Source: a virus
IMG/VR virus record: IMGVR_UViG_3300028197_000982
Location: 10,923-74,922 of that record
Length of the DNA stretch: 64,000 nt
Reading direction: 5' to 3' (one strand)
Of the stretch, positions 10,788 through 53,584 are shown piece by piece. The notes beneath the pieces are model-generated. The model saw only the letters and a list, made by a program, of their open reading frames with translations, made no database searches and was not told the DNA's origin. How positions within the stretch are numbered: the stretch's first letter is position 1; the number at the start of each line of letters is the position of its first letter. The translations under genes and the position numbers were made by a program.

Positions 10788-11084
10788 ATGCCATTAGTTC
10801 CACCTATTTTAAACTCCGCATTAACTGCTGCATTTTCAGCTGCTATGTATGACTTTATTAATATATCAGCACAGCCTGGTACAAATGATGGGGTTGATAA
10901 ATCAGCCTTAGCTATTTCAACAGCTTCGGCAACATTCTCAGGTATTGCTGGACCAGCGATAGATGCTTACATAAGATCACAGCTTATAATTTTACCACCA
11001 GGACAAGCCGTCGCTACTGCAGGGTCACCGTCAGCACAAGTTGGCGCAACAACTGCACCATCTCCACCAGCTCTTATTACATAA
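10788..11084 (+). CDS. Small Ala/Pro-rich protein downstream of the spike (possible spike-associated protein)
   Basis: 98-aa ORF immediately after the gp5-like gene; late-type motif at 10759. Confidence 0.6.
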   Translation: MPLVPPILNSALTAAFSAAMYDFINISAQPGTNDGVDKSALAISTASATFSGIAGPAIDAYIRSQLIILPPGQAVATAGSPSAQVGATTAPSPPALIT

Positions 11085-38839: not shown

Positions 38840-39196
38840 ATGAAAACATTTAAAGATTACCTTAACGAGGATCATAATGAATCTATAGATATACAAAGTT
38901 TATTGAATGAATCTTATGATTTAACAGAAGAACAAGAAACCGCAATAGATAATGCAGTTGATAGAATTATGGAAGAACATAATAACGGAAAAGATTTAGA
39001 AGTTATTATGGAAGAAATAATTAATGAAGGTATTTTAGGATCTGTTTTAGGTGGTCTTACTGGTTTTGCTTTAGGTAAATCCGTAGGAAAGGCTATTGCA
39101 AAAGTACTAGGTATTCAAAAAGGAGCCTTATATGATTTATTAACCAGTCGATTAATTGGTGCTGCATTAGGAGCAGTGTTAGGTAAAAGACTTTAA
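38840..39196 (+). CDS. Putative head-packaged propeptide: CTS-like leader, acidic pro-region, cationic glycine-zipper C-terminus
   Basis: MKTFKDYLNE leader; LNE/LTE/INE sites; GxxxG-rich hydrophobic tail; late-type motif at 38815. Confidence 0.65.
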   Translation: MKTFKDYLNEDHNESIDIQSLLNESYDLTEEQETAIDNAVDRIMEEHNNGKDLEVIMEEIINEGILGSVLGGLTGFALGKSVGKAIAKVLGIQKGALYDLLTSRLIGAALGAVLGKRL

Positions 39197-39206
39197 TTCA
39201 ATATAA

Positions 39207-39872
39207 TTGATTTACACAGGTATAGATTTTTCTCTTAATAGTCCAGGTACATGTACACAGGACCATAAAGGTAAATACACGTTTATTACATTCTTTAATT
39301 ACGGTAATAGAATATGGGATGAAGAAGGTAGAAAGATACCTAAGTCATTTTCGGTTCATAAAGAATTAATGGACAATAAAACAATATTAGGGTTTCCTTA
39401 TTATAGACAAGTAAAGGATAAGGACTTTTTACTTAGGGAAAGAGAAAAACTCACAGATGGCCAAAACATAGCCGACTTAATTTCAAATATTTTAATAACA
39501 TTATATGGAACCGATGAGCATAAGATTGCATTAGAAGGATTTTCTTATGGATCAAAAGGAAACTCATTCATAGATATTGTTCAGTATAATACATTTTTAA
39601 GAAATGAAATAGTTAATGCATGGGGTGTAGAAAATATTTCAATTTATCAACCGTCACATGTTAAGAAATTGGCAGGTAAAGGTAATGCAAATAAACATTA
39701 TATGGTAAAGGCGTTCCAAGACGATGTTTTTAACGATAAAGATTTAAGGAAAACAGATTTATGGAAATGGACTCAAGGTAAAGACTTTACAGAAAAGATT
39801 CCTAAACCGATAGATGACTTAGTAGATGCGTACTTTATATTAAATGCGAATAAAGAAAAAGGGTGGTCATAG
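39207..39872 (+). CDS. ruvC: RuvC-like Holliday junction resolvase
   Basis: GIDFSLNSPG, IALEGFSYGS, PSHVKKLAGKGNANK and DDLVDAYFI catalytic motifs; TTG start. Confidence 0.8.
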   Translation: MIYTGIDFSLNSPGTCTQDHKGKYTFITFFNYGNRIWDEEGRKIPKSFSVHKELMDNKTILGFPYYRQVKDKDFLLREREKLTDGQNIADLISNILITLYGTDEHKIALEGFSYGSKGNSFIDIVQYNTFLRNEIVNAWGVENISIYQPSHVKKLAGKGNANKHYMVKAFQDDVFNDKDLRKTDLWKWTQGKDFTEKIPKPIDDLVDAYFILNANKEKGWS

Positions 39873-39879
39873 AAATACT

Positions 39880-39936
39880 TTATACATTAAAACCACTAAA
39901 TACTTTAAGTCTAGTAATTACATACTTCTCTTTCAT
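39880..39936 (-). CDS. Candidate 18-aa small ORF MKEKYVITRLKVFSGFNV
   Basis: Fills the ruvC-groES gap downstream of a minus-strand copy of the gp32 promoter motif. Confidence 0.3.
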   Translation of the reverse strand: MKEKYVITRLKVFSGFNV

Positions 39937-39949
39937 TAATTTAGTATAT

Positions 39950-39980
39950 TTTATATATAGAGTTTAGAAATTAGTTTCAG
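39950..39980 (-). promoter_or_regulatory. Minus-strand bipartite promoter CTGAAACTAA-N12-ATATATAA
   Basis: Same elements and spacing as the plus-strand motif at 40270-40299. Confidence 0.55.
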
Positions 39981-39986
39981 ATAATT

Positions 39987-40253
39987 ATGATAAAAGCAAT
40001 AAAAAATAGAATATTTATTAAAAAAGATGAACTACCTGAGAAAATAGGTAACATTTATGTACCAAAAACCGAAGGGCAGTATGCTCCTCCTTACTCAGGA
40101 ACTATCATTTCCGTTGGTGGTGACATAGAAGATACTGATTATAAAGTAGGCTCCCGAGTACTATTTCATGATTTAGCAGGAACTGAGTTTAAGTATAATG
40201 ATGATACTATATTCAGTATTAGAGAAAATGATGTAACTGCTATTTTACAATAA
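39987..40253 (+). CDS. groES: Co-chaperonin GroES (T4 gp31 analogue)
   Basis: IKAIKNRIFIK...GNIYVP...GTIISVG...KVGSRVLF...G.EFKY...IRENDVTAIL. Confidence 0.9.
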   Translation: MIKAIKNRIFIKKDELPEKIGNIYVPKTEGQYAPPYSGTIISVGGDIEDTDYKVGSRVLFHDLAGTEFKYNDDTIFSIRENDVTAILQ

Positions 40254-40270
40254 AAAAGTTTTATTTAGTC

Positions 40271-40300
40271 TGAAACTAAATAGAGATATGAATATATAAT
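40271..40300 (+). promoter_or_regulatory. Bipartite promoter TGAAAC-N18-TATAAT (overlapping AATATATA) for the gp32 leader
   Basis: TGAAAC 40271-76, TATAAT 40295-300. Confidence 0.6.
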
Positions 40301-40336
40301 AAACAAAGGAACTGATATTATTGGTGACTTTTAAAT

Positions 40337-40456
40337 GGCATATAACAAGGCAAAGTATATTGGCAATACCCGGGCAAATTAAAAATAGGCAATGCTTTGT
40401 TATGGCTTTAATTAAATAAATAACAAACAAATAAAAAAGGCAAATTAAAATGGCAA
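40337..40456 (+). promoter_or_regulatory. Structured gp32 mRNA leader with repeated GGCA(A) motifs
   Basis: GGCA at 40337, 40349, 40362, 40373, 40388, 40439 and 40452; 11-bp stem 40342-52 / 40393-403. Confidence 0.55.
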
Positions 40457-41367
40457 ATGAATTCGACATTTTCAGTGTTAGCGTCAAGGACCTAGACACT
40501 GGAGACAGACCGCAAACAACAAGCGATCTTTACACACCAAAACCTGATCAAGGTTCAGACGGTACTTACCGTTCACTAATTAGGTTTCTACCTAATGTTA
40601 AAAATCCACGCAAACCTTTCGTTCGTAAATATGTCTACTGGTTAGAAGACAGAGATGGGAACGGCTTTTACGTAGACTCACCTTCAACAGTTGGAGATAA
40701 ATGTTCTGTACAGGATATGTTCTTTAAACTTAGAAATTCTGAATCTGCTGTAGACAAAAAGATGTCAGAAGGGCTAAAGCGTAGAGAAGTATTTTATGCA
40801 TTAGTACAGATCGTAAAAGATCCACAAAACAGAGATCTTGAAGGTCAGGTTAAAATCATGAAATTTGGTTATAAAATTAAAACCAAAATTGATGAGGAAT
40901 TAAATCCACAGTTTGATGAACCAACTCAAGTATTCGATCCTTTTGAAGGAAAGAATTTTGAATTAGTAATTTCAAAGAAAGGTGGTTATCCTAACTATGA
41001 TTCTTGTAAATTTCAAGGAAGTAAATCGGCAATGACGATTAACGAAGAAGCGGTAACTGCTGATGATGCAGGTAGAACTGCTATTCTTGATTTTATTAAA
41101 GATGCTCCAGAGTTAAGTAATTTTGATTATAGACCATGGACTGATGATCAAAGAACTAAAGTAATGGGTGTTCTTTCACAATTCAGTAATCCAGGATCTT
41201 CAATAGAAACTGTAACAAGAAAGCAATCTGCACCTGAACCTGTAAAAGCTGAAGCCGCTGCAACTAAAGTAACGGAAACCGCAACAGCACCAGTAACAGA
41301 AACCAAAACCGAAGATTCTTCTAAGGGAGATGATTTCGATGATTTTATTAATGGATTAGACCTTTAA
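40450..41367 (+). CDS. gp32: Single-stranded DNA-binding protein (T4 gp32-like)
   Basis: LIRFLP, LVQIVKDP...EGQVKIMKFG.KI..KI, VFDPFEGKNF, GYPNYDSCKF and acidic tail DDFDDFINGLDL. Confidence 0.92.
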   Translation: MANEFDIFSVSVKDLDTGDRPQTTSDLYTPKPDQGSDGTYRSLIRFLPNVKNPRKPFVRKYVYWLEDRDGNGFYVDSPSTVGDKCSVQDMFFKLRNSESAVDKKMSEGLKRREVFYALVQIVKDPQNRDLEGQVKIMKFGYKIKTKIDEELNPQFDEPTQVFDPFEGKNFELVISKKGGYPNYDSCKFQGSKSAMTINEEAVTADDAGRTAILDFIKDAPELSNFDYRPWTDDQRTKVMGVLSQFSNPGSSIETVTRKQSAPEPVKAEAAATKVTETATAPVTETKTEDSSKGDDFDDFINGLDL

Positions 41368-41371
41368 TAAT

Positions 41372-42445
41372 ATGGGAACGGAAGTAGTAATATCTTCTGA
41401 AATGAAAGCTCGGATCATCGATAAGGTGGTCCGAGTTCTTCACCTTAACCATTCTCATCCAGAAAAAAGGAGAATGTTGGAAAGTAAGGAAAGGTTAAAT
41501 TTTGCATGCCCTTACTGTGGAGATTCAACAGATTCAGTAAGAAAGAAAAGAGGTAATCTTTATTGGAATAATTTACATTTTCATTGTTACAATTGCTCCG
41601 CGCATGAAAGCTTAGATGTTTTCTTAAAAGATCATAATTTAAATTTTGAAGGTGAAGATAGAATTGATGTTCTTAATTACATAAAAGATAACAGTAAAAA
41701 CTTTTCATTAGGTGAAAGCTTAGAGTTTCATTTATTTGAAAAAGCTAACAATCTTGCATTATCTTTTGATGAAATTGCATTAGGTTTTAATGTGTATCCA
41801 ATAAACTCTTTAACTTATAGGGCATATCCATATTTAAAAAGTAGGCTATTGCATCATAAGACTGAAAAGTTTGGATATGATCCAAGACGAAAAGAACTTT
41901 ATGTCTTTAATTTAAACGGTAAAGAAAAAATTGTAGGATTCCAAGTTAGGGCATTAGATGATAACGGTGGCCCTAAATATAAAACATGGAATATAGAAAG
42001 GATATATGATAGATTAAAAAAACCTTTAAATGTAACCGAAGAAGAATTAGATTCTCTAAATAAAATATCAATGATTTTCGGTATACTTACAACCGATTTA
42101 AGCAGGCAGTTTACAGTGTTTGAAGGTCCTATAGATTCTTTCTTTATGACAAATACAATTGGTCTTACTGGTGTTAAAAAACAAATATTAGATTTTGATG
42201 AAATTCCAACGGTTAGGTATTTCTTTGATAATGACATGGAGGGAAAATCTAAAATGATCCAAAAACTAAAAGGCGGTAATACTGTTTTTATGTGGGATAA
42301 GTTTTTAAAAGATTTTAGAATACCTTCTAAAAAAGTAAAAGATTTAAACGATTTAGTTATGTACGAATACAAGCATAGGACTGGGTGTTTAAATGAGTTG
42401 GATAAATATTTTACAAACAATCATTTAGATCTTATATTTATATGA
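41372..42445 (+). CDS. gp61: DNA primase (T4 gp61-like)
   Basis: Zn finger NFACPYCGDS...RG...FHCYNC; Toprim VFEGPIDSFF, FFDND and KDLND. Confidence 0.9.
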   Translation: MGTEVVISSEMKARIIDKVVRVLHLNHSHPEKRRMLESKERLNFACPYCGDSTDSVRKKRGNLYWNNLHFHCYNCSAHESLDVFLKDHNLNFEGEDRIDVLNYIKDNSKNFSLGESLEFHLFEKANNLALSFDEIALGFNVYPINSLTYRAYPYLKSRLLHHKTEKFGYDPRRKELYVFNLNGKEKIVGFQVRALDDNGGPKYKTWNIERIYDRLKKPLNVTEEELDSLNKISMIFGILTTDLSRQFTVFEGPIDSFFMTNTIGLTGVKKQILDFDEIPTVRYFFDNDMEGKSKMIQKLKGGNTVFMWDKFLKDFRIPSKKVKDLNDLVMYEYKHRTGCLNELDKYFTNNHLDLIFI

Positions 42446-42660
42446 TAAAAAATTATAATGATTTTGTGACTGAACAATTTGATGATTTTTATGATGATTT
42501 AGAAACTTCTAAGAAAAAACTTAAATTATTTACTAAGTTTAAAAAGATTGAGACTAATGATGTAACTAGTAATTTTTCTTTACCTCAACCTAAAAAGAAA
42601 TTTCAACCTAAGATTAAGAATTATAAAAAGAGTAGTAATAATAATAAAGGAATATTTTAA
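42442..42660 (+). CDS. Small basic protein with CTS-like leader
   Basis: MIKNYNDFVTE leader; overlaps both neighbours. Confidence 0.65.
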   Translation: MIKNYNDFVTEQFDDFYDDLETSKKKLKLFTKFKKIETNDVTSNFSLPQPKKKFQPKIKNYKKSSNNNKGIF

Positions 42661-43109
42661 TGGCATTTGACGATACACAAATAAAAGAAGCTAACGAACA
42701 GTTAGAAATTAGACTAGGATCTGATAGAACCGATTGGAAAGGAAAAATTAAAGATCTTGTTTCTAAGCTAAAAAATATGAATGAGCTAGCCGAATGCCAA
42801 GTAAGAATGTTATCATATCGGCAAATTCTTTTAGATAAAGTAACTGATTTTAAAACTACTATATATAAAAGGAATGCTACTTGGGATAGGTACTATAAGC
42901 AACAATATCGGGAGTATTCAATTAACTATGATGTTAAATTAACAAACGGAGAAAAGCATCAATTTATAAAAGCTGACCTTTCTTCGTTAAGACAACAAAT
43001 TGATATGTTACAATCTCATATAGATTATTATTATGAATGTATTAAGACTTTAGATAATATGGCATTTGCAATAAGAAATCGAATAAACTTAGATGACAAG
43101 GAATTTTAA
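42660..43109 (+). CDS. uvsY: Recombination mediator UvsY-like
   Basis: Helical 149 aa directly upstream of uvsW; KL...EK..FIKADL...IDYYYECIKTLDNMAFAIRNRI. Confidence 0.75.
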   Translation: MAFDDTQIKEANEQLEIRLGSDRTDWKGKIKDLVSKLKNMNELAECQVRMLSYRQILLDKVTDFKTTIYKRNATWDRYYKQQYREYSINYDVKLTNGEKHQFIKADLSSLRQQIDMLQSHIDYYYECIKTLDNMAFAIRNRINLDDKEF

Positions 43110-44611
43110 TGGAATTATCTCTTTCTGAAAATAAAAAGTTTTTAGTAATTGATTCATGTACCGAATTGGAATATGAACAGTTAAAATCTAGTCTTACTAA
43201 GAAAATAGAAGGGTGGCGATTCCATCCCCTAGTAAAGAAAAAGGTATGGGATGGAAATATTTCATTTATTAAAAGAAATAAAATTCCTGCAGGATTATGG
43301 AAAGAAGTAATAGATATATGTAAACAATATGATTATCAATTTACATTAAATGGAATAACTGATATTTTTGATACTTCAATAGATGAAGGTGTATTTAGGT
43401 TATGGGTAGATGAATTCTTTTGTAACTCCGAGATTAAGCCTCGTGATTATCAGATAAATGCTGCAATTAAAATTTTAAAATATAGGAGATGTTTAGCAGA
43501 GTTGGCAACTTCCGCCGGTAAAACACTAATCTCATTTATGGTAGTAGCTTACATGATGGAGCAATTAGGAAAGAAGAAAATTTTAATGATCGTACCTAAT
43601 GTAAGTTTAGTAGTTCAGGCAAGTGGAGATTTTGAAGAATATAATAAAGGCAGGGTACCTATTAAGATTCAACAAATTTATGCAGGTGTTAAATTAAGAA
43701 AGAGTTCTAATATGGTTATTGGTACTTATCAATCATTAACTAAAAAAGATGAAAAATACTTTAGTCAATTTGATGCCGTTTTTGTTGATGAAACTCACAA
43801 AGCAAAAGCTAATTCAATTCAAAAGATAATGGATAAATGTTGGCATTGTGATTATAGATTTGGGTTAAGTGGAACTATTCCTAAAAGAGGAACGGTGAAT
43901 AGGTTAAGTCTAATGTCTGCAATGGGTCCTTTAGTAACCCAAGTAAAGGCTTCACATTTACAAGAAGAAGGGTTTATAGCAAAATGTAAAGTATTACAGA
44001 TCCACATGGACTATGCAACCGATGCACAGAAGGAGGCATTCTCGTCTTTGTCTAAAAACCCATATGATAAACAAAAATTATTTAGCTTAGAACAAAATTT
44101 TATTAATGAAAGTGAAAAAAGACTAGATTTTGTTTGCCAAGTAATAAAAAAATCCACATCTAATTCATTAGTGTTATTTCATAAAATTGCATACGGTGAA
44201 AAATTATATAAAAAACTTAGAACAATAACAGATAAGAAAGTATATTATGTAGATGGTTCTGTTAAGTCTGATTTTAGAGAAGAGTTTAAAAAGAGAATGG
44301 AAAAGAATGATGATGTTATAATAGTAGCCTCATACGGTACTTTTTCTACAGGTATATCAATTAAAAATATTCATAACATATTTTTTACAGAAAGTTTTAA
44401 ATCTGAGGTGATTATTAGACAATCTATCGGTAGAGGATTACGAACACACAAAAATAAAGATGTTGTAAAAATATATGACTTTATTGACGATTTTAGATAT
44501 AAAGCAGAAGAGCATGACTGGGTAAATTATATTTATAGGCATGGAATGGAGAGAAGAAAAATTTATAAAGAGGAAAAGTTTCCTTTTGATGTACAAAACG
44601 TCAGATACTAA
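43109..44611 (+). CDS. uvsW: SF2 DNA helicase UvsW
   Basis: WDGNI, PRDYQ, ATSAGKT, DETH, GLSGT, ASYGTFSTGISIKNIHN and QSIGRGLR. Confidence 0.95.
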   Translation: MELSLSENKKFLVIDSCTELEYEQLKSSLTKKIEGWRFHPLVKKKVWDGNISFIKRNKIPAGLWKEVIDICKQYDYQFTLNGITDIFDTSIDEGVFRLWVDEFFCNSEIKPRDYQINAAIKILKYRRCLAELATSAGKTLISFMVVAYMMEQLGKKKILMIVPNVSLVVQASGDFEEYNKGRVPIKIQQIYAGVKLRKSSNMVIGTYQSLTKKDEKYFSQFDAVFVDETHKAKANSIQKIMDKCWHCDYRFGLSGTIPKRGTVNRLSLMSAMGPLVTQVKASHLQEEGFIAKCKVLQIHMDYATDAQKEAFSSLSKNPYDKQKLFSLEQNFINESEKRLDFVCQVIKKSTSNSLVLFHKIAYGEKLYKKLRTITDKKVYYVDGSVKSDFREEFKKRMEKNDDVIIVASYGTFSTGISIKNIHNIFFTESFKSEVIIRQSIGRGLRTHKNKDVVKIYDFIDDFRYKAEEHDWVNYIYRHGMERRKIYKEEKFPFDVQNVRY

Positions 44612-44674
44612 TATAGAATATCTTTCTCATGAGAGATGGATATATAAAAAAAGAATCAAAAAAAGATAATTATA

Positions 44675-46198
44675 ATGAAACCAATTAAAAAGTTTTCAAT
44701 GATGACTAAAGCCGAAGATTCAATTAATGAATCGGCAGATGTTAATCACGATGCAGTAATGGATCTCGTTAAAAAGATGGGTTACGATAGCGTTGACGAA
44801 TTAAAGAAAGAAAAAAATCTATTAAGTAAATTAGAAGGTTTACTAAAAGATGTTTCCCCAAAACAAGATATATCTGAAGATGAGCTAGAAGAAGATCGTG
44901 CCGAAGATATAGCCGACGAGGTTAAGAAAAAAGGTACTCCTAAATCTTTAGAAGCCGAAGAAGAAAAAGAAGAAGATAAAGTTGGTGCAGAAGGCGAAGT
45001 CGCTGAAGACGAGGAAATGGAAGATGATGATTTAGTTACTAAAGATCAAGAAATTACTAAAGAAGTTCCTGCTGAAGCTGATGAAGTAGAAGATGAAGAT
45101 GGTGTTGAGGTTGCTGCTGAGGAAGAAGAAACTCCAGCTGCTACTCGAAGAATTATGGCATTTGAAGATTTCATTAAAGAAAAAGAAGTTACAATAAATA
45201 AGAATGTCAAATATCACGATGATGATGAAGAGAAAGAAGACTACTCTGTTGTTGCTGCATCTGCCGATGCTATTTCTGAAGATGATGAAGAAGAAGGCAA
45301 GGATGATGAAAAGAAAGGTGATGAGTTAGAAGATAAAGGAGATAAGAAAGTTGATTCTGAAGACGATAAAGAAAAGGAAGATCATTACAAAGGTGCTGTT
45401 AAATCTGATGACTCTGAAATTGACGCATTAAAGAAAGATGTTAAATACGATAAAGAAGAAGAAGATGATGATGATGACGATGACGATAAGAATGAATCAA
45501 GAATTATGTCATTCTCAAACTTCGTAACAGAAGCTTATGATGTAGATGAAGACAGAGCTGATGATATTGAGGACGAACTTAAAAAGAAAGGTACTCCTAA
45601 ATCTTTAGAAGACGAAAAAGATGAATCCGTTGAAGAAGGTGTTGGTGAAGTAATTACTAAAGTAGAAGGTGATGAAATTGCTGATGAAGAAGCAGGTGAT
45701 GATGGTCTTGCTATTCCTGCAGAAAAAGGTGACGGTTCTGAAACTGCTGCTGGTATCGCTGGAGATATAATGGATATGGGTAAAGTAAAAGTTCAACCTG
45801 AATCAAAAGGTGAAGAATTAGTTACTAAAGACCAAAACGTTACAACTGAAGTAAAAGGTGAAGCTGACGATCTTAAGGATGCTACTGAAGTTCCTGCAGA
45901 AATGGGCGATGGTTCTGAATCTGCCGCAGGTATTGCTGGAGACATAATGAATATGGGTAAAGTAAAAGCTCAGCCTGAAGCAAAAGGTGCTGCACTAGTT
46001 GGAGAAGCTAAGATTAATGAAAAGGATATTACTTCTGCTGATGAATTTAAAGAATATGCAATGGCAATTCTAAAAGATGCATTCGGAGATGATTTTGATG
46101 AAACTAAAGCAACTGAAACTGCTGATGGTTTACTTAAGAAGTATGGTGAAGATTACGGCGCAATGGTCGGAGCTTTACAATCTACTATGGGATCATAA
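44675..46198 (+). CDS. Highly acidic, internally repeated putative prohead core / internal head protein
   Basis: D/E-rich; CTS-like motifs RIMAFEDFIKE and RIMSFSNFVTE; INE/ISE sites; GATATATA at 44639. Confidence 0.65.
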   Translation: MKPIKKFSMMTKAEDSINESADVNHDAVMDLVKKMGYDSVDELKKEKNLLSKLEGLLKDVSPKQDISEDELEEDRAEDIADEVKKKGTPKSLEAEEEKEEDKVGAEGEVAEDEEMEDDDLVTKDQEITKEVPAEADEVEDEDGVEVAAEEEETPAATRRIMAFEDFIKEKEVTINKNVKYHDDDEEKEDYSVVAASADAISEDDEEEGKDDEKKGDELEDKGDKKVDSEDDKEKEDHYKGAVKSDDSEIDALKKDVKYDKEEEDDDDDDDDKNESRIMSFSNFVTEAYDVDEDRADDIEDELKKKGTPKSLEDEKDESVEEGVGEVITKVEGDEIADEEAGDDGLAIPAEKGDGSETAAGIAGDIMDMGKVKVQPESKGEELVTKDQNVTTEVKGEADDLKDATEVPAEMGDGSESAAGIAGDIMNMGKVKAQPEAKGAALVGEAKINEKDITSADEFKEYAMAILKDAFGDDFDETKATETADGLLKKYGEDYGAMVGALQSTMGS

Positions 46199-46229
46199 CA
46201 AATCAATATAAATTATAAAAAACAAAATT

Positions 46230-46994
46230 ATGAAAACAATACTAAATTTTTCGGAATTTGTAAATGAAAATTTAAATGAAGAATCATTTTCTGATTTTAA
46301 CAAGTCTTCTGGTTTTAAAATGGATTCTAAAGCTAAAAGTACATTAAAAAAATTAAATGTAAATCCTACAAAGTTAAAGGATGCATTTGATGATTACAGT
46401 AAAATCATGAAATACTTAGATTCCAATGGTAAAAAGATTGGTACTGTATCAATACCTAACCCAGGAAGTAAATCAAATCCTGAATTTATGTATACTGTTT
46501 ATGATACTGATATGTATGGCAAAGTATTAACAGGCGATGGAGATTCAGTATTTATTGAAATGGTAAAGGAATCACTTAATGAAGGTGAATTTCCATCTTG
46601 GGTTGATAAAGGTAGAGTAGACTCTCTCAAAGATATGTTTGCTTATATTGGTGGTGATATTCAAAATGCTGATGGTTCAGAGCTAACAGTAGCTGATGTT
46701 AATAAAAATTACAAACCAGCTTTAAAATATCTAGGAGTAAGATCTATTGATGATATGGGTATGATTGCAAGTTCAATTGATAATGATGATATGTTTGATG
46801 GTGCTGATGCAATAGATAAACAAATGAAAAGTTCTAACTTTCTTGGAGATGATAGAGGAAAGGGAATGAATCCAACTCCATACACTGCTGCATATAAAGG
46901 AATGGTAGGAGATATGAAAGTAATTATAACTCAAGATATTAATGGAGAAAATACTTTTGTATTTGCTGCAACCAAAGGAGGAAAACTTAAATAA
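46230..46994 (+). CDS. Putative internal head protein
   Basis: MKTILNFSEFVNENLNE leader; internal SLNE splits the protein into two ~100-135-aa modules. Confidence 0.6.
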   Translation: MKTILNFSEFVNENLNEESFSDFNKSSGFKMDSKAKSTLKKLNVNPTKLKDAFDDYSKIMKYLDSNGKKIGTVSIPNPGSKSNPEFMYTVYDTDMYGKVLTGDGDSVFIEMVKESLNEGEFPSWVDKGRVDSLKDMFAYIGGDIQNADGSELTVADVNKNYKPALKYLGVRSIDDMGMIASSIDNDDMFDGADAIDKQMKSSNFLGDDRGKGMNPTPYTAAYKGMVGDMKVIITQDINGENTFVFAATKGGKLK

Positions 46995-46997
46995 AAC

Positions 46998-48269
46998 ATG
47001 AAACATATAAAATTGTTTGAAGAGTGGCTGACTGACAAAAGTCAGCCATTTTTGTTTGAAGGTGGTGCCGCTGGCCACATGGCTCACCCATTTGATGATA
47101 AGGATTTAACCTTTGGTGATTTTAAGGCAATGATAGATTCTGGTCTTAGAGGTGAATTAAACTTTGAAGAAGATGCTACTGAAAAGACTGATGGGCAAAA
47201 TGCATTTGCTACTATTCAAGACGGTGAAGTTAAATTTGCAAGAAACAAAACAGAGTTAAAGAATCCAATGACTCTTTCTGAATTTAAGAATAAATTTGAA
47301 GGGCATCCTAGTAAATTAGTACAAGATACTTTTCAATTTGCCGCACAAGATTTAGCTAGGTTACTAATGAACCTTTCACCAGCTGACCAAGAAAAGTATT
47401 TTAAGAATGGAAAAGACTTTATGAACATGGAGTTAATCTATTCACAAAACCCTAATGTTATTCATTATGATACAGACGTTATTCAATTTCATGGTATAAA
47501 GGAAACTGATGGAAATGGAAATATTACAGGTACTAATAATAAACCTGCAAAAGAAATTGCAGATATACTTAAAAAGGTTGAATCTGATATTGGTAAAACG
47601 TTTAAAATAATTCCACCTAGAGCTATCAAATTACAAAAGGATTTAGATTTTACTACAAACAAGAAAAGATTTATTAATCAAGTTAATGCTTTAGAAAAAA
47701 GATACGGTTTAACTGATAGTGATGAAGTTGCTAAATATCACGAAATGTGGTGGAGGGAAATGATAGACAAACAGTTTCCAAAATTATCACAGGATGTAAA
47801 AGAAGGCTTACTTAAGAGATGGGCGTATGGAGATAAGAAGAGTTTAAACATGAGATCTCTTGCTAAACAAATTGGACCTAAGGAGGCTGCGGTGGTTAAA
47901 AAGTTTGATAAAGAAGATGTTGCTAAAAAGTATAAAGAAAACATTAGACCTTTTGAAGATCTGTTCTTAGAACTAGGATCTGTAATTCTTAAAAATGCAT
48001 CTGACTTTTTAGCGGTTAACCCGTCCGATGAAGCACAAAGACTAAGATCTCAAATACAAACAGCAGGGAGCAAGATTAAAAAGACTGGCGGTGCTGACCA
48101 AGTAAGAAGAGTAGAAGCTGAATTAGCAAGGCTTGATAGAATTGGTGGAATAGAATCCATATTTCCAACCGAAGGGATAGTATTTAAATATAAAGGAAAA
48201 ATTTACAAACTTACCGGTACATTTGCTGCAATTAATCAGCTATTAGGTATCATTAAGTACGGTAGATAA
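46998..48269 (+). CDS. ATP-dependent RNA-ligase-fold nucleotidyltransferase (DUF6267-like)
   Basis: EGGAAGHMAHPFD, motif I TEKTDG, motif III NMELIY, motif IV EGIVF and motif V YKLTG; CTS-like leader MKHIKLFEEW. Confidence 0.7.
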   Translation: MKHIKLFEEWLTDKSQPFLFEGGAAGHMAHPFDDKDLTFGDFKAMIDSGLRGELNFEEDATEKTDGQNAFATIQDGEVKFARNKTELKNPMTLSEFKNKFEGHPSKLVQDTFQFAAQDLARLLMNLSPADQEKYFKNGKDFMNMELIYSQNPNVIHYDTDVIQFHGIKETDGNGNITGTNNKPAKEIADILKKVESDIGKTFKIIPPRAIKLQKDLDFTTNKKRFINQVNALEKRYGLTDSDEVAKYHEMWWREMIDKQFPKLSQDVKEGLLKRWAYGDKKSLNMRSLAKQIGPKEAAVVKKFDKEDVAKKYKENIRPFEDLFLELGSVILKNASDFLAVNPSDEAQRLRSQIQTAGSKIKKTGGADQVRRVEAELARLDRIGGIESIFPTEGIVFKYKGKIYKLTGTFAAINQLLGIIKYGR

Positions 48270-48356
48270 AATAGTAGATACACCTATATAGATCACCTGT
48301 ATTAAGAGTTAATATTTGTAGTATTTGTATATACTCTGAAAGTAGTAGAGTATGAT

Positions 48357-48386
48357 AAAGGATAGGTATGTGCTGTCCTTTTTTTT
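48357..48386 (+). terminator. Rho-independent terminator
   Basis: AAAGGATAG / CTGTCCTTT stem, 7-nt loop, run of 8 T (48379-86). Confidence 0.7.
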
Positions 48387-48437
48387 ATATAGCTATTTAA
48401 CTAAAGAATATATAAATTGACAATATAAAATAAGCAA

Positions 48438-51400
48438 ATGAAAGAGTTAACTCAAATTTATAAAGATGCAGGCCAACAATTAATAGAAGATCTTTTTAAA
48501 GATTATCTCGTAGTATCCGAAAAACTATCTGGTTCTTCATTTTCATTTAAGAAAGACGGTGAAGGGATTACTTTTTATAAAGGTGGAAACCAAAAGCCTA
48601 TTAACTTAATTGATAGGACTATAATGGTTTATTATGAAAAGCCTATTAATTTTATAAAATCTGTAACTAGCAAAAATCTTTCTTCCATTCCTGAGAATTG
48701 GAAGTTCTGTTTTCAATATTTTGTAAATACTAATCCTGGTATTATTACTTATGATAGGCTACCTAAAAATAATTTAGTACTTACTCATATTAAAGTGATG
48801 ACGCCAGCCGGTAAAGTTACAAAGGTTATAGAAGATCCTAGAGTAATTAGAGACTGGGCAAATGCGTTAGGTGTTACTCCACTACTTCCATTATTTAAAG
48901 GTTACTTAACAGAAGATCAAAAGAAAAAAATAAAGGAATTTTTAGACACGCCAAAAGAAGATCATGCTGAAATTTTTAGTACTAATTCTTTTGCTGAATA
49001 TTTACTTAGAATTTTAAATCCTAATATTCAATCAACAACTCTACAAAATGATCTTAAGAAGCCTATAGAATCTATTGTATTTAAATTTTATAAATCTGGT
49101 ACCAAACAAGTTATTGCTGCTAAATTAATAGATCCCTATACAATTAACCTAATGAAAGAAAAGGAACCTATCGATATGAGAAAGGCTCCTGCTGATATTA
49201 ATGAAATTATTCTATTAGATCTTTTAGCATTTATAGAAGAAAGAGGAATTAAGAAGCATGAGATTTTAGGTGATGCTGAAGATACAAGATATATTGAACT
49301 AGTTTCAAATATATTTAATGACTATGTAACCAAAAGAGGTAAGGATATTGCAAAGATTGATATTGAAAAGGCTGATTTTGCTAAAGGTAAAGAATTTGAT
49401 TTAAATGTAGAATTAATACCAAGCCAAAGAACTAAAGATATCCTTAATAGTAATCCTAAGCTAAAAGACTTATTTAAAATAATACTAGGTTCTTTAAAAA
49501 AGAAAAGAAAGAATGCTGGTAATATTATGACGCCATCTGTTATTGAAGATTTTAATAAAATGGTAGATAAAGTAACTGATGTAATTCAAACAAAAGATGA
49601 TGGTAAATTTAAAACTTTTGATGATTACTTAAAAATTAAATCTACTAATGAATCTCTTTTGCCTAACGCTGAAGAACTATTAATTGAAGATAAAGTTTTA
49701 GACTATAACAACTTTATTAATTTAGGTAAAGTTATTGTAGAAGATAGTAGAAAGAGTGGTGAAATTTGGAAAACCTCAACAGGGTTTAGAGGGCAGGATG
49801 CTAACGGTGATAGAAAAACATTTAAGTCTAAAGAACAGACTCAATCGTGGATAAAAACCGGAAGAGAGGATGTTAATAAAGAACCTACTGAGAAAACCAA
49901 AGAATTTGATATTTCTACAATTGATAAAAAGAAAAGCCCTGGGGCATTTAAACTAGCATCAAAATTAAATAAAGTAAAAGATCCTAAACAAAGAAAAGAG
50001 GCAGAGAAAGTAATTAAGTCACTAAACGATTTTGAATCTGCTGATACTGATGCAGATAAAAAGAAAGCATTAGAAGAACTAATTAAAAATGGTGACCTTA
50101 ATAGAAATGCAACTGGTTCTAAAACAGATAAAATTTACTTGGGCCAGCCAAAGGACAATGATAAATTTAGAACAAACCAAAAAACTGGTTTGCCTTATAA
50201 AAATTCAATAGGTGGTGATAGTTCTAAGCTTACTAACAGTATTCTTGATGAGGCTGATAGATTAGGTGTATCTTTTCCATTAAATGCTGAGTCTAAAAGA
50301 ATGGCCGGTGCAAGTGTTGCCCCTAATGCCATACATGTTGATGAAAAAGGTAAGCCAGCAAAACCAGCTAAAATAGAAACAATAGAGATTAAAGGTAAAG
50401 GTAAACCTGGTGATGATGATTATGAAGCTCCTGGTGTTCAGTTAGGTGGTAAAGATGGTTTAGTTATAAAAGAAACCCCACCACTTACTGGCAGTCAAAA
50501 ATCTGATTTAAAAGAAAAATTTAAAAAGGCAGATCCAACAAGAAGCGATGCCGAGATAAATAGGCTAGTATCAATTAATGAAGAATTTAGAAATCAAAAT
50601 AATAAAAAATTAGAAGCCATTAGATCTGGTGAGTTAACTATTGCCCCAATTATTAGAGAAGATGGTTCTGAGGTTAATGTATTTGATAAAAAAGGACAAA
50701 AGGAAGCTGTAGGTATAATTGCAAAGAATATGACTTCTAGGATAGATGATCTTCTTTCAAATCCACCAGGTTATGAAAAGAGTCCACAATTACAAAAAGG
50801 ATTAGATAGTTTTAAAAGTGCAGGTGAAGATTTTTCTAGTGGTAAAATATCAAAAGAAGAATTTAAAAAAGCATCTGATGAATTACTTATAGAACTAATG
50901 AATGATCCACAAGGTAGATATGGGGGTCCATTTTTACAAGAGACTCTTTTAATGGCAGAAGGATTAAGTGAAGGTCGTGCTGTGATATCACCTTCGTCTG
51001 CTAATTATAAAGTAGCAGACTTAGTAACATTTGATTCAGCTGAATTACCTGCTGATGCTACACCAGAGCAAATTAATGATTATGTACAACTAATGTCTGT
51101 TTCAGGTGGACCTACATCAATTAAACAGGGTAAAGGTGGAGCAAGTTCTTCTAATTCTAAAATAACCGCTACTGAATATGCAGACTATACAGATAATGAT
51201 GGTAAAGTTACAAAAGGTGCTGATGTTAGACAAGATTTAGAAAATTTAACATCAAAAGGTTTTGACAATATTTGGAATACACCATCAGCTCCTAATAAAG
51301 ATGGTAAATTTGAAACTTTAGATAAGTCTATAAAAGAAGGCGAAGAATTAGCCAAAAAATATGGGAGCACTGAGTTCTTAAAAGATAAAGGCATAATTCC

Positions 51401-51947
51401 ATTATCTAAAAAACAGCAAGAAAAATATGAAAAGAGAGCAAACCCTAAGAGAATTGAATCACTAAAAGAAAGTTATGCTAAAAAGAAACCACCTATCGAA
51501 CTATCGGATGATCAAGCAAAAGAGGTATTAATTAAAAGATGGCACGCAACAGATATAAATGGTTATTTAATGATGGATATTAATAATAAGCAACAAATGG
51601 CCCAAAGTTTTACCAATATATCAAGATCTGTAGAACCAGTGAACGGTGGTAATTCTGCAATGTCAGAAGAAGATGCAAAGAGAGATGACAATATTGTAAA
51701 AGATTCAAAAGGTAATCCTATTCCTATTGTAGATAAAGATGGGGTACCAGAAACAACTAGTAAAGGTACACCTAAATGGAGGAGACAAGAGAAGGTGGTC
51801 AAACAAGAAACTAATGGAATATCTCAATTAGCTTGTATGGATTATCAATCAACACCAGACTTTACTGATACGGGTAGACCAACTAATAAAATGCCAGCAT
51901 TTGTTAAAAAATGTTCTGATGAAAATAAGTGGATAGGAGATTCTTAG
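48438..51947 (+). CDS. Large protein: degenerate RNA-ligase-fold N-terminus plus charged C-terminal region with possible PD-(D/E)xK-like motif
   Basis: VSEKLSGS, FCFQY, IESIVFKF and AAKLID; internal FKTFDDYL...TNE; later LQE...PSSANYKVAD...TSIKQGKGGAS. Confidence 0.6.
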   Translation: MKELTQIYKDAGQQLIEDLFKDYLVVSEKLSGSSFSFKKDGEGITFYKGGNQKPINLIDRTIMVYYEKPINFIKSVTSKNLSSIPENWKFCFQYFVNTNPGIITYDRLPKNNLVLTHIKVMTPAGKVTKVIEDPRVIRDWANALGVTPLLPLFKGYLTEDQKKKIKEFLDTPKEDHAEIFSTNSFAEYLLRILNPNIQSTTLQNDLKKPIESIVFKFYKSGTKQVIAAKLIDPYTINLMKEKEPIDMRKAPADINEIILLDLLAFIEERGIKKHEILGDAEDTRYIELVSNIFNDYVTKRGKDIAKIDIEKADFAKGKEFDLNVELIPSQRTKDILNSNPKLKDLFKIILGSLKKKRKNAGNIMTPSVIEDFNKMVDKVTDVIQTKDDGKFKTFDDYLKIKSTNESLLPNAEELLIEDKVLDYNNFINLGKVIVEDSRKSGEIWKTSTGFRGQDANGDRKTFKSKEQTQSWIKTGREDVNKEPTEKTKEFDISTIDKKKSPGAFKLASKLNKVKDPKQRKEAEKVIKSLNDFESADTDADKKKALEELIKNGDLNRNATGSKTDKIYLGQPKDNDKFRTNQKTGLPYKNSIGGDSSKLTNSILDEADRLGVSFPLNAESKRMAGASVAPNAIHVDEKGKPAKPAKIETIEIKGKGKPGDDDYEAPGVQLGGKDGLVIKETPPLTGSQKSDLKEKFKKADPTRSDAEINRLVSINEEFRNQNNKKLEAIRSGELTIAPIIREDGSEVNVFDKKGQKEAVGIIAKNMTSRIDDLLSNPPGYEKSPQLQKGLDSFKSAGEDFSSGKISKEEFKKASDELLIELMNDPQGRYGGPFLQETLLMAEGLSEGRAVISPSSANYKVADLVTFDSAELPADATPEQINDYVQLMSVSGGPTSIKQGKGGASSSNSKITATEYADYTDNDGKVTKGADVRQDLENLTSKGFDNIWNTPSAPNKDGKFETLDKSIKEGEELAKKYGSTEFLKDKGIIPLSKKQQEKYEKRANPKRIESLKESYAKKKPPIELSDDQAKEVLIKRWHATDINGYLMMDINNKQQMAQSFTNISRSVEPVNGGNSAMSEEDAKRDDNIVKDSKGNPIPIVDKDGVPETTSKGTPKWRRQEKVVKQETNGISQLACMDYQSTPDFTDTGRPTNKMPAFVKKCSDENKWIGDS

Positions 51948-51980
51948 TATTAATTTGATAAGAGTGAATAAATAAAAAAA

Positions 51981-53357
51981 GTGTACATGGATAATCTAAA
52001 AAACATACAAGATTTTATAACAGAAAAAAGAGTTACTGTTAAGAGGAGATATACTGAAAGACACCCAGCTAAAAATGTATCTACTGCAGCTAGAGTTCGT
52101 TCTGCTATTTTAGATGCTGTTTCTGATGGTCATTTAACCGAAGATGAAGTTAATAATATTCTATCTGAAATTAAAGCTCATAAAAGATGGCTTAAAAGAA
52201 ATGTAGGATTATTTAATATTAGTGAAGATGAAACTGGAGTTAAGAGATATTCTTTATCACCTTATGGTCATAGAGTAAGAACCGCAACTGCCCCGATTAA
52301 TGAGGCTTTAAAAGTTCCTCATAAAGAACAAGGTAACAAAAAGGTTAATATGTTTGTTGGTAGATTCCAACCTTTTACATTAGGTCATGTTAAAGTATTT
52401 GAAAAAATGTACAAAGAAAATGGAAAACCTGTAGTTGTATTTTTAGTTAGAGGAAAAAACAACGATCCTGAGAAAAGACCGTTTGATGAAGAAATGCAAC
52501 AAGCAATGTTTGCTAAGATGGCAAAACAATATCCATTTTTAGAAACTGCTATTGTAGTTCCTAATGGTTCAATTGATACAATGTTTGCAGCTGCAAGGCC
52601 TGCTTATGAACCTGTGATGTGGGGATATGGGACAGATAGAAAAAAATCATACGGTGCAATGATTGACAAACAATCATACCGAGATCAATTAGGTGTAGAT
52701 CCTGATTTTAAAGGATATGAAATTTTTAGAACTGATGATAACATTTCAGCATCCAAAGTTCGTAATGCGTTAAAGATAGATGATGAAAAGACTTTTAAGA
52801 AAATGACTCCTAAAAGCATACATAGTTTTTATAAACCATTACAAAATATATTAGAACCAATAAAAGAAAATAACAATATGAAAAATTTAAAATCACTAAC
52901 AAGTTTTAGCATTGACGAATCTTTGAATGAAGGTAAAAAAGCTAAAGCAAAAAACCCTAATAAAGTAAACACTATAGATGTTGATTTATCTGGAGACGAT
53001 TCAGATATAATGGATGCAATTAAATCATTTAATCTAAAGGTTAAATCTAACGGAGCCAATAAAGGAACAGGGTATGATATGACAGGTAAAAATAAAGATA
53101 TTCTTGATTATTTACAAAGTGACTATTATGCAATAGATGCTAGCGATATTGAGGATATGTTTCCAGAATTATTAGAAGGTGAAATCAATGAAGAGTATAT
53201 TGAATTAATGCCAGAGATTGCAAATGCATTAGGTACAATTCAAATGGACTGGGACAGATGGAAAAATGGACCAGCAACAGAACCTTCTGATATTAAACCA
53301 GCAGCAAAAGAACTTAAAGGTTGGATTACTCGTTGGATGAAACAAAATATTAAATAG
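51981..53357 (+). CDS. HxGH-superfamily nucleotidyltransferase (phage cytidylyltransferase-like) with appended modules
   Basis: MFVGRFQPFTLGH, YGTDR and ISASKVRNAL; start may be the ATG at 51987. Confidence 0.8.
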   Translation: MYMDNLKNIQDFITEKRVTVKRRYTERHPAKNVSTAARVRSAILDAVSDGHLTEDEVNNILSEIKAHKRWLKRNVGLFNISEDETGVKRYSLSPYGHRVRTATAPINEALKVPHKEQGNKKVNMFVGRFQPFTLGHVKVFEKMYKENGKPVVVFLVRGKNNDPEKRPFDEEMQQAMFAKMAKQYPFLETAIVVPNGSIDTMFAAARPAYEPVMWGYGTDRKKSYGAMIDKQSYRDQLGVDPDFKGYEIFRTDDNISASKVRNALKIDDEKTFKKMTPKSIHSFYKPLQNILEPIKENNNMKNLKSLTSFSIDESLNEGKKAKAKNPNKVNTIDVDLSGDDSDIMDAIKSFNLKVKSNGANKGTGYDMTGKNKDILDYLQSDYYAIDASDIEDMFPELLEGEINEEYIELMPEIANALGTIQMDWDRWKNGPATEPSDIKPAAKELKGWITRWMKQNIK

Positions 53358-53584
53358 TGAATAATTTAATTAATGAAAATGAAGCAGGTACTGTTGGACT
53401 AAATCCTAATATGAATGTACAGGGTATGGGAGCAGTTGAGCTTCCTGGTGATCCTGGTTCTGCAAATTCTTTTGCTACACAAAAGGTTGGTAGTGGTGAT
53501 GATCCTGAGGGAAAAAAGAAAAAGAAAAAGAAAATGTTACTTTTATCATTTGATAAGTACATGGAACTTTTAAAATCAAAATAA
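53357..53584 (+). CDS. Small protein with poly-Lys and a C-terminal CTS-like motif
   Basis: GTG start overlapping the upstream stop; LINE; KKKKKKKMLLLSFDKYME. Confidence 0.6.
   Translation: MNNLINENEAGTVGLNPNMNVQGMGAVELPGDPGSANSFATQKVGSGDDPEGKKKKKKKMLLLSFDKYMELLKSK

Follow-up and report, generated by a model that had tools for sequence, protein, structure and literature searches.

Six consecutive plus-strand genes, designated g1 to g6, were analysed at positions 44,675 to 53,584 of a 64-kb stretch of viral DNA (the window), which represents the last 64 kb of a 74.9-kb contig with a G+C content of ca. 32% (IMG/VR record IMGVR_UViG_3300028197_000982, positions 10,923 to 74,922; 27% complete). 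Three products of these genes, a predicted RNA-ligase-superfamily enzyme (g3), a degenerate, Rnl2-like ligase fold (g4N, the N-terminal part of g4) and a HIGH-motif nucleotidyltransferase (NTase; g5), belong to modules that are linked throughout a large group of phages. In addition, several of the six proteins carry a short leader peptide that resembles the capsid targeting sequence (CTS) of bacteriophage T4. Packaging into the phage head by means of this T4-like tag was, as judged from sequence, the explanation with the best support in the case of g2, g3, g5 and parts of g1, with an estimated probability of roughly 55%.

The source of the contig is an uncultured, marine T4-like phage. Its closest record in the phage collections was LR756500 (uncultured, 462 kb), whose gp32 was 57% identical. 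Related IMG/VR contigs reached 212 kb (76% estimated completeness), which corresponds to an estimated genome size above 200 kb. Homologues were very common in marine metagenomes, and the module belongs to a large group of such phages.

An AF2 model of g3, based on 23 homologues, had a pLDDT of 85.6. Its best structural match was the Naegleria RNA ligase NgrRnl (Z 9.0, root-mean-square deviation 3.9 over 187 aligned residues), followed by fungal Trl1 (Z 8.8), T4 Rnl1 and trypanosome REL1 (both Z 8.2) and T4 Rnl2 (Z 7.9), and ligases occupied the top 41 rows of the comparison. Foldseek E-values for the same model were weak (2e-3). The g3 family comprised 1861 clusters at 50% sequence identity, and conservation of its motifs was counted over 151 sequences, with the best 150 of these clusters as relatives. 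K63, D65 and G66 of motif I were invariant in 149 of 151 sequences, the remaining two being gapped at these positions. E145 of motif III was conserved in 149/151, E392 and G393 of motif IV in 150/151 and 151/151, respectively, and K404 of motif V in 151/151. Such invariance is the constraint expected of a working enzyme. The intact ligase motifs that had been read from the g3 sequence by eye were thus borne out, and model fold and invariant motifs together place g3 in the ATP-dependent RNA/DNA ligase superfamily, as an enzyme that looks active.

Curated profile models did not identify g3 as a ligase; its assignment to this fold was obtained from the structural match of the AF2 model. No match to g3 was found among Pfam, PHROG and NCBIfam models, including PF09414, PF01068 and PF09511; a scan of the contig with PF09414 picked up only a canonical DNA ligase, and no ligase was matched when g3 and g4N profiles were searched against PDB sequences. 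With T4 Rnl1, Trl1, NgrRnl (Rnl5) and T4 Rnl2, g3 shares the nucleotidyltransferase fold and motifs I, III, IV and V. In contrast to these known RNA ligases, it contains a helical insert of ca. 165 residues and a conserved N-terminal GG-x-x-GH-x-x-HP element, and members of its family are nearly always coupled to a HIGH-motif nucleotidyltransferase. The canonical ATP-dependent DNA ligase (PF01068, E 1e-26) is encoded on the same contig upstream of the window (G000:C1:6707-8029), immediately preceded by a gene for a J-domain protein. Since the contig encodes this enzyme, g3 is not the replicative ligase.

The first 440 residues of g4 were modelled with a pLDDT of 81.9. T4 Rnl2 was the top Foldseek match (E 1.5e-7), and all 24 matches at E ≤ 1e-3 were RNA ligases. 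The resemblance to T4 Rnl2 extended over the full-length protein, including its helical C-terminal domain, and a precomputed PF09414 match was present in three members of the g4N family; g4N itself, like g3, reached no Pfam, PHROG or NCBIfam ligase model. A direct BLASTP comparison of g3 and g4 showed no similarity; their kinship was visible only by profile and fold, with hhalign aligning motifs I and III of the two profiles (E 2e-4, probability 46%). The catalytic constraint that characterizes known RNA ligases is lost in g4N. The motif I lysine was retained in 22 of 29 family members and was otherwise replaced by D, R, M or N, the motif I Asp was found in only 6 of 31, and motif III contained Q in 15 members and E in 13. 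In view of these losses, and of the residues K29, S31 and Q93 in g4 itself, the description of g4 as a degenerate ligase with substituted motifs is fair. The model and the family alignment indicate that g4N is a paralogous Rnl2-like ligase fold in which catalytic residues are no longer constrained, and we infer that its probable role is that of a subunit without catalysis or with only part of the reaction.

A nuclease had been suggested for the remainder of g4. This suggestion was not supported: searches of Pfam, NCBIfam and the Atlas, as well as a profile search of PDB, gave no match to this C-terminal part (g4C). Identity of g4C among strains was 48-74%, and residues E835, D861 and S894-I-K896 were invariant in an alignment limited to 10 mostly close relatives. 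In one relative (P0368), the domain order is g4N-NTase-g4C. Metagenomic protein P0121 is 98% identical to g4N as far as the second leader-like motif of the g4N tail and then continues in unrelated sequence; it represents either a chimera of the assembly or a natural swap of modules at this same junction. A PD-(D/E)xK flag (PF12705) on P0121 was rejected as evidence on g4C, as it is located in this unrelated C-terminal sequence.

The third module, in g5, scored above cut-off with PF01467 (31.3 bits, cut-off 21) and TIGR00125 (33.4 bits, cut-off 27.7), which confirmed the HxGH-type transferase read at this position. Scores against NMNAT equivalog and subfamily models were far below their cut-offs (31.8 bits versus 127 and 23.4 versus 181.2), and only the N-terminal, HIGH-motif half aligned. 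By these profile matches, g5 is best described as a HIGH-motif nucleotidyltransferase, closest to archaeal-type NMNAT and PPAT.

Linkage of the three modules was analysed in 45 related viral loci, in which g3 was 54-98% identical. Their gene order is leader protein, gp32, primase, UvsY, UvsW, a variable stretch, g3, g4N and NTase. Three of the 45 loci end at or just past g3; the order g3, g4N, NTase was kept in all 42 that reach far enough downstream, as well as in LR756500. In most of the 45 loci, g4N and NTase form a single polypeptide (e.g., P0135). In less closely related phages, the g3 domain forms the C-terminal end of large proteins (600-2000 residues), with a HIGH nucleotidyltransferase nearly always at the start. 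At least 90 of the 150 representative clusters showed this fusion, as did nearly all of the distant viral loci and Microcystis phage Mel-JY01, a phage that was named in no paper retrieved in a literature search. Some g3 relatives additionally contain a Zeta/AAA_33-like kinase, a poly(A)-polymerase-type NTase or an ADP-ribosyltransferase domain. Modules have also been reshuffled within the clade of the present strain, as illustrated by the ca. 730 extra residues in g4, the unique g2 and the chimeric g5, in which the NTase is fused to the N-terminal part of a protein that, in the 212-kb relative, is encoded 3' of the NTase gene. Repeated independent fusions and a fixed gene order suggest that the three domains work together. 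Conservation of this linkage among relatives was thereby established, and module identity and linkage of g3, g4N and g5 can be stated with high confidence.

Near-obligatory fusion to a ligase domain also bears on the possibility that g5 is a true NMNAT, which would rebuild NAD+ in response to NAD+-depleting host defences while the ligase-fold proteins would be accessory or would produce or consume NAD+-related adenylates. Archaeal and NadM-type NMNAT are the closest named families of g5, cyanophage homologues are annotated as NMNAT, and phage pathways that reconstitute NAD+ have been described (Osterman 2024, as cited in PMC12801897). This explanation would leave the fusion without a role and is at odds with the low equivalog scores and the half-length alignment, and was considered improbable.

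The leader was searched for with a pattern taken from the T4 CTS: an aromatic residue, two residues, an aromatic, an aliphatic, one residue and an acidic residue. It was found at the N-terminus of four of the 64 proteins encoded by the contig, while 0.19 were expected from shuffling, and all four genes lie within 8 kb (38840-46998). In the 212-kb relative, 10 of 300 genes encoded an N-terminal leader, versus 1.1 expected. The leader, of ca. 13 residues and followed by [LIV]-x-E, heads g2, g3 and g5, and internal copies occur in g1. The variable stretch between UvsW and g3 contains, depending on the strain, zero to five extra small genes, almost all of which begin with nearly identical sequences of 13 residues. 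In total, 127 distinct leader-bearing open reading frames, from 46 loci, the window and the 212-kb relative, fell into 34 families with unrelated protein bodies. Codons of the leader varied synonymously and the DNA 5' of the leaders was unrelated, which indicates that the leader is selected as a peptide rather than as a DNA or RNA element. The g3 leader was disordered in the AF2 model. A tag on all six consecutive genes, as proposed in the sequence-only reading, was recovered in g2, g3 and g5 and inside g1, whose N-terminal copy is weak in this strain and clear in relatives. It was absent from the N-terminus of g6, and the motif at the N-terminus of g4 was rejected as a capsid tag, as it lies in two ordered helices that are part of the ligase fold and is itself conserved across the g4N family.

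In T4, the head protease removes the CTS (MKTYQEFIAE) in a single cut, and this sequence suffices to load foreign proteins (PMC8442874; PMC3012670). The leader described here resembles it in being short and N-terminal, in the spacing of its aromatic, aliphatic and Glu residues, in its presence on unrelated proteins in variable loci, and in the occurrence of a gp21-type protease in related records of the lineage. It differs in its length (13 instead of 10 residues), in its putative cargo, which includes large enzymes and acidic proteins instead of the small basic ones of T4, and in the additional copies inside polyproteins and at C-termini; it is also known from sequence alone.

A gp21-type Peptidase_S77 domain (Pfam) scored above cut-off in four of five related records, with no match to this domain in the record of the closest relative (G004, which holds locus L002 with a 98% identical g3). 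The Peptidase_S77 domains of relatives (L082-L085) are located within frames of 642-831 residues, much longer than T4 gp21, which suggests a protease-scaffold fusion. Cleavage sites of the I/L-x-E type had been claimed at module boundaries. The density of [LIV]xE in these proteins was 1.2-2.6 per 100 residues, which is about the rate estimated, roughly and without computation, from composition, and bare counts of this motif were rejected as uninformative by themselves. Two sites were conserved beyond chance, with the remainder occurring at chance frequency. The first precedes the GG that opens the g3 core, with L or I at position -3 in 144 of 147 sequences and E at position -1 in 118 of 147; [LI]-x-E was found ahead of the g3 core in ca. 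80% of representative sequences. The second, [LIVM]-x-E before [AG]-L, is located ca. 15 residues upstream of the NTase and was present in 31 of 31 distinct versions, whatever preceded it.

A link to phage particles was provided by cyanophages. NMNAT-like or ‘cytidylyltransferase’ proteins have been detected by mass spectrometry in virions of S-SCSM1, S-CBWM1 and S-CREM2, and the authors suggested that they are carried in the virion (PMC9602691; PMC10665884). Neither of these proteome papers mentions a targeting sequence or a ligase partner, and a literature search yielded no paper that links the CTS to cyanophages, a T4 review aside. The S-SCSM1 protein (ORF91), one of three similar proteins with those of S-CREM2 (ORF154) and S-CBWM1 that share a homologous HIGH core with g5, shared 30% identity with the g5 core (E 2e-11) and starts with a leader of the same type. 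Its gene is part of a run of genes whose products were verified as virion proteins by mass spectrometry, and this run ends at a tail-fibre gene. A leader was also present on the NTase homologue of phage Syn33. The NTase of the present phage group differs from these cyanophage proteins in being fused to, or encoded beside, ligase-fold proteins. Just upstream of the ‘cytidyltransferase’ gene of Syn33, a leaderless protein (Syn33_181, L098:1860-2756) contains, in ligase-like order, K-W-D-G, E-G-F-V and, further on, a lysine; no significant match to the g3 profile was obtained with hhalign, and the ligase-like appearance is a reading of motifs by eye.

If the leader is a head-loading tag, a pathway in three steps can be proposed. 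The leader would first dock g2, g3, g5 and the modules of g1 into the prohead core. A gp21-type protease would then trim the leaders and cut the g4N-NTase and g5 polyproteins at the conserved [LIVM]-x-E before [AG], after which the mature enzymes would be ejected together with the DNA. Inside the cell, and speculatively, they would most likely act on broken ends of nucleic acids, such as RNA cleaved by host defence nucleases, and join or nucleotidylate them ahead of phage gene expression. A role in repair or counter-defence after injection is proposed only tentatively, with RNA end-joining against host nucleases as the most natural guess. It is a long shot that the constant pairing of the HIGH NTase with ligase folds, one of which has no constrained lysine, means that they divide the chemistry of ligation between them, such that the former adenylylates or otherwise nucleotidylates an end or a cofactor and the latter perform only transfer or sealing, in a kit that is delivered pre-made from the head and acts on RNA or DNA ends within the first seconds of infection.

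Several observations weigh against head packaging of these enzymes. The genes g1 to g6 adjoin replication genes rather than head genes, and the N-terminus of g4 is untagged. Motifs of the leader type are also located within proteins and at C-termini, positions at which a T4-type CTS is not known to function, and the tagged proteins are mostly acidic, in contrast to the basic internal proteins of T4. The cyanophage virion homologue of g5 is distant (ca. 30% identity) and, as its authors note, could simply be highly expressed; the S-SCSM1 counterpart of the leaderless Syn33_181, which is encoded apart from the NTase, was not flagged as a virion protein. With respect to the proposed end-joining, a search of the partial genomes revealed neither a polynucleotide kinase nor any other enzyme for end healing.

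Some of these observations would be expected if the enzymes instead formed a cytoplasmic, non-packaged set for RNA repair or nucleotide metabolism, with the leader acting as another signal, such as hub docking, stability or turnover, or an assembly-independent interaction helix. The genes directly follow those for gp32, primase, UvsY and UvsW, and stand-alone g4N proteins, among others, have leader-like motifs at their ends. The predominantly acidic character of the tagged proteins points in the same direction, as does the fusion of members of the g3 family to a kinase or a CCA-adding-type polymerase, as in RNA-repair systems. The RNA ligases of T4 are not known to be virion proteins. A cytoplasmic role of this kind fails to account for the fit of the leader to the T4 CTS pattern, up to its [LIV]-x-E end, for its occurrence on 34 unrelated protein bodies, for the leader-bearing homologue in virions and for the gp21-type protease in the lineage. 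It was considered rather unlikely, and head packaging was retained as the preferred explanation.

Polyvalent proteins of phages and conjugative elements are among the closest known systems. These long multidomain proteins combine conflict-related enzymes, and both their delivery together with the DNA and their processing by proteases have been proposed (Iyer et al., 2017; PMC5512222). The Zeta-like kinase, poly(A)-polymerase-type NTase and ADP-ribosyltransferase domains of g3 relatives are a further similarity. The modules described here differ from polyvalent proteins in that most of them are encoded by separate genes and have a leader of their own.

The dual role of T4 RNA ligase 1 (gp63) is established, and the module might by analogy aid in tail-fibre assembly, in which case the virion signal of the homologues would reflect association with fibres. 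Three tail-fibre-like genes are located directly 3' of the module in the window, and the S-SCSM1 cluster is followed by a tail-fibre gene. In the 212-kb relative, however, the genes 3' of the module are unrelated to fibres, and involvement in fibre assembly would leave the leader, the protease sites and the NTase fusion all unexplained. This explanation was regarded as very remote.

If the leader is indeed a tag for head loading, sequence alone would suffice to read the injected protein cargo of a very abundant ocean-phage group, this cargo would include nucleic-acid enzymes besides small inhibitor proteins, and the repeated occurrence of NMNAT-like proteins within particles of cyanophages would be explained. 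Irrespective of packaging, the g3 family represents a large branch of the ligase superfamily that has no name and that almost always has a HIGH nucleotidyltransferase as partner.

Table 1. Features of the g1-g6 region and of neighbouring leader-bearing genes (positions in the window). Motif coordinates were derived by hand from residue numbers.
Feature	Position	Strand	Remarks
Leader-bearing conserved protein	38840..39196	+	118 aa; most T4-like leader (aa 1-10); 26 members; same tagged set
Leader-bearing basic protein	42442..42660	+	72 aa; pI 9.7; between primase and UvsY
Promoter-like word ATATATAAA	44640..44648	+	27 nt upstream of g1
g1	44675..46198	+	Hyper-acidic; 507 aa; net charge -99; pI 4.1
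g1, internal leader copies	45161-45181 and 45512-45532	+	
g2	46230..46994	+	254 aa; clean leader at aa 1-13 (46230-46268)
g3	46998..48269	+	Predicted RNA-ligase-superfamily enzyme (model fold and invariant motifs)
g3, leader	46998-47036	+	aa 1-13; disordered
g3, L-x-E preceding GG	47052-47060	+	
g3, motif I	47181-47201	+	Around K63
g3, helical insert		+	ca. 165 aa (aa 218-381), between motifs IIIa and IV
g3, motif IV	48171-48185	+	
g3, motif V	48207-48209	+	K404
Hairpin and T-run	48357..48390	+	Terminator-like; ends g1-g3 unit, separates g3 from g4
Promoter-like word ATATATAAA	48408..48416	+	22 nt upstream of g4
g4	48438-51947	+	
g4N	48438..49742	+	Predicted Rnl2-like ligase fold, degenerate active site; motif I region 48519-48533
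g4N, disordered tail	49608-49631 and 49695-49742	+	Two conserved leader-like motifs; second ends I-V-E
g4C	49743..51947	+	ca. 730 aa; fast-evolving; close relatives only; conserved core ca. 50940-51125
Promoter-like word GAATAAATA	51966..51974	+	Upstream of g5
g5	51981..53357	+	Chimeric protein; probable start ATG 51987
g5, leader	51987-52025	+	N-terminal module to ca. 52295
g5, I-N-E preceding A	52296-52304	+	
g5, HIGH-motif nucleotidyltransferase	ca. 52323-52880	+	Predicted; HIGH motif 52359-52388
g5, internal leader-like stretch	52878-52931	+	C-terminal module onward to end
g6	53357..53584	+	75 aa; lysine run; leader-like motif at C-terminus; closest relatives only

Among the remaining genes (Table 1), g1 contains internal duplications and ranges from ca. 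140 to 810 residues between strains. Its conserved C-terminal segment of ca. 60 residues is encoded directly upstream of g3 in most syntenic loci, with a middle part and a length that vary. The protein could be a DNA mimic or a filler of the head core. Gene g2 is strain-specific: it was absent from 80 of 80 related loci, including L002, and its product had no family match in Pfam, PHROG or NCBIfam and only sub-threshold matches in the Atlas. With an acidic leader and a very basic tail, the product of the gene at 42442-42660 comes closest, within the tagged set, to a T4 internal protein.

Late-type promoters had been reported ahead of g1, g4 and g5. The T4 late promoter TATAAATA occurred 12 times, versus 18 expected, and not ahead of any of g1 to g6, so that the claim did not hold for the T4-type sequence. 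Other promoter-like words were found at these three positions. Nine of 11 plus-strand copies of ATATATAAA in the window are intergenic and located just 5' of gene starts, including those of structural genes. The seven copies of GAATAAATA in the window (8400, 20377, 27206, 37171, 51966, 55858 and 58798) are all on the plus strand and all 12-60 nt 5' of a gene start, with five of them intergenic; they precede g5, two tail-fibre-like genes and four others, among which is the gene for a 1537-residue structural protein. GAATAAATA is one base away from TATAAATA and is a candidate late-promoter core. The distribution of both words is compatible with shared, possibly late promoters.

Upstream of g1, the window encodes T4-type replication proteins, comprising a gp32-like single-stranded DNA-binding protein, primase, UvsY and a UvsW-like helicase. 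In some relatives, the gene for this helicase is split by an insert of ca. 1.8 kb or is present in pieces (L010:4530-7882; G001 110838-112290), which may reflect insertion of an intron, an intein or a homing endonuclease.

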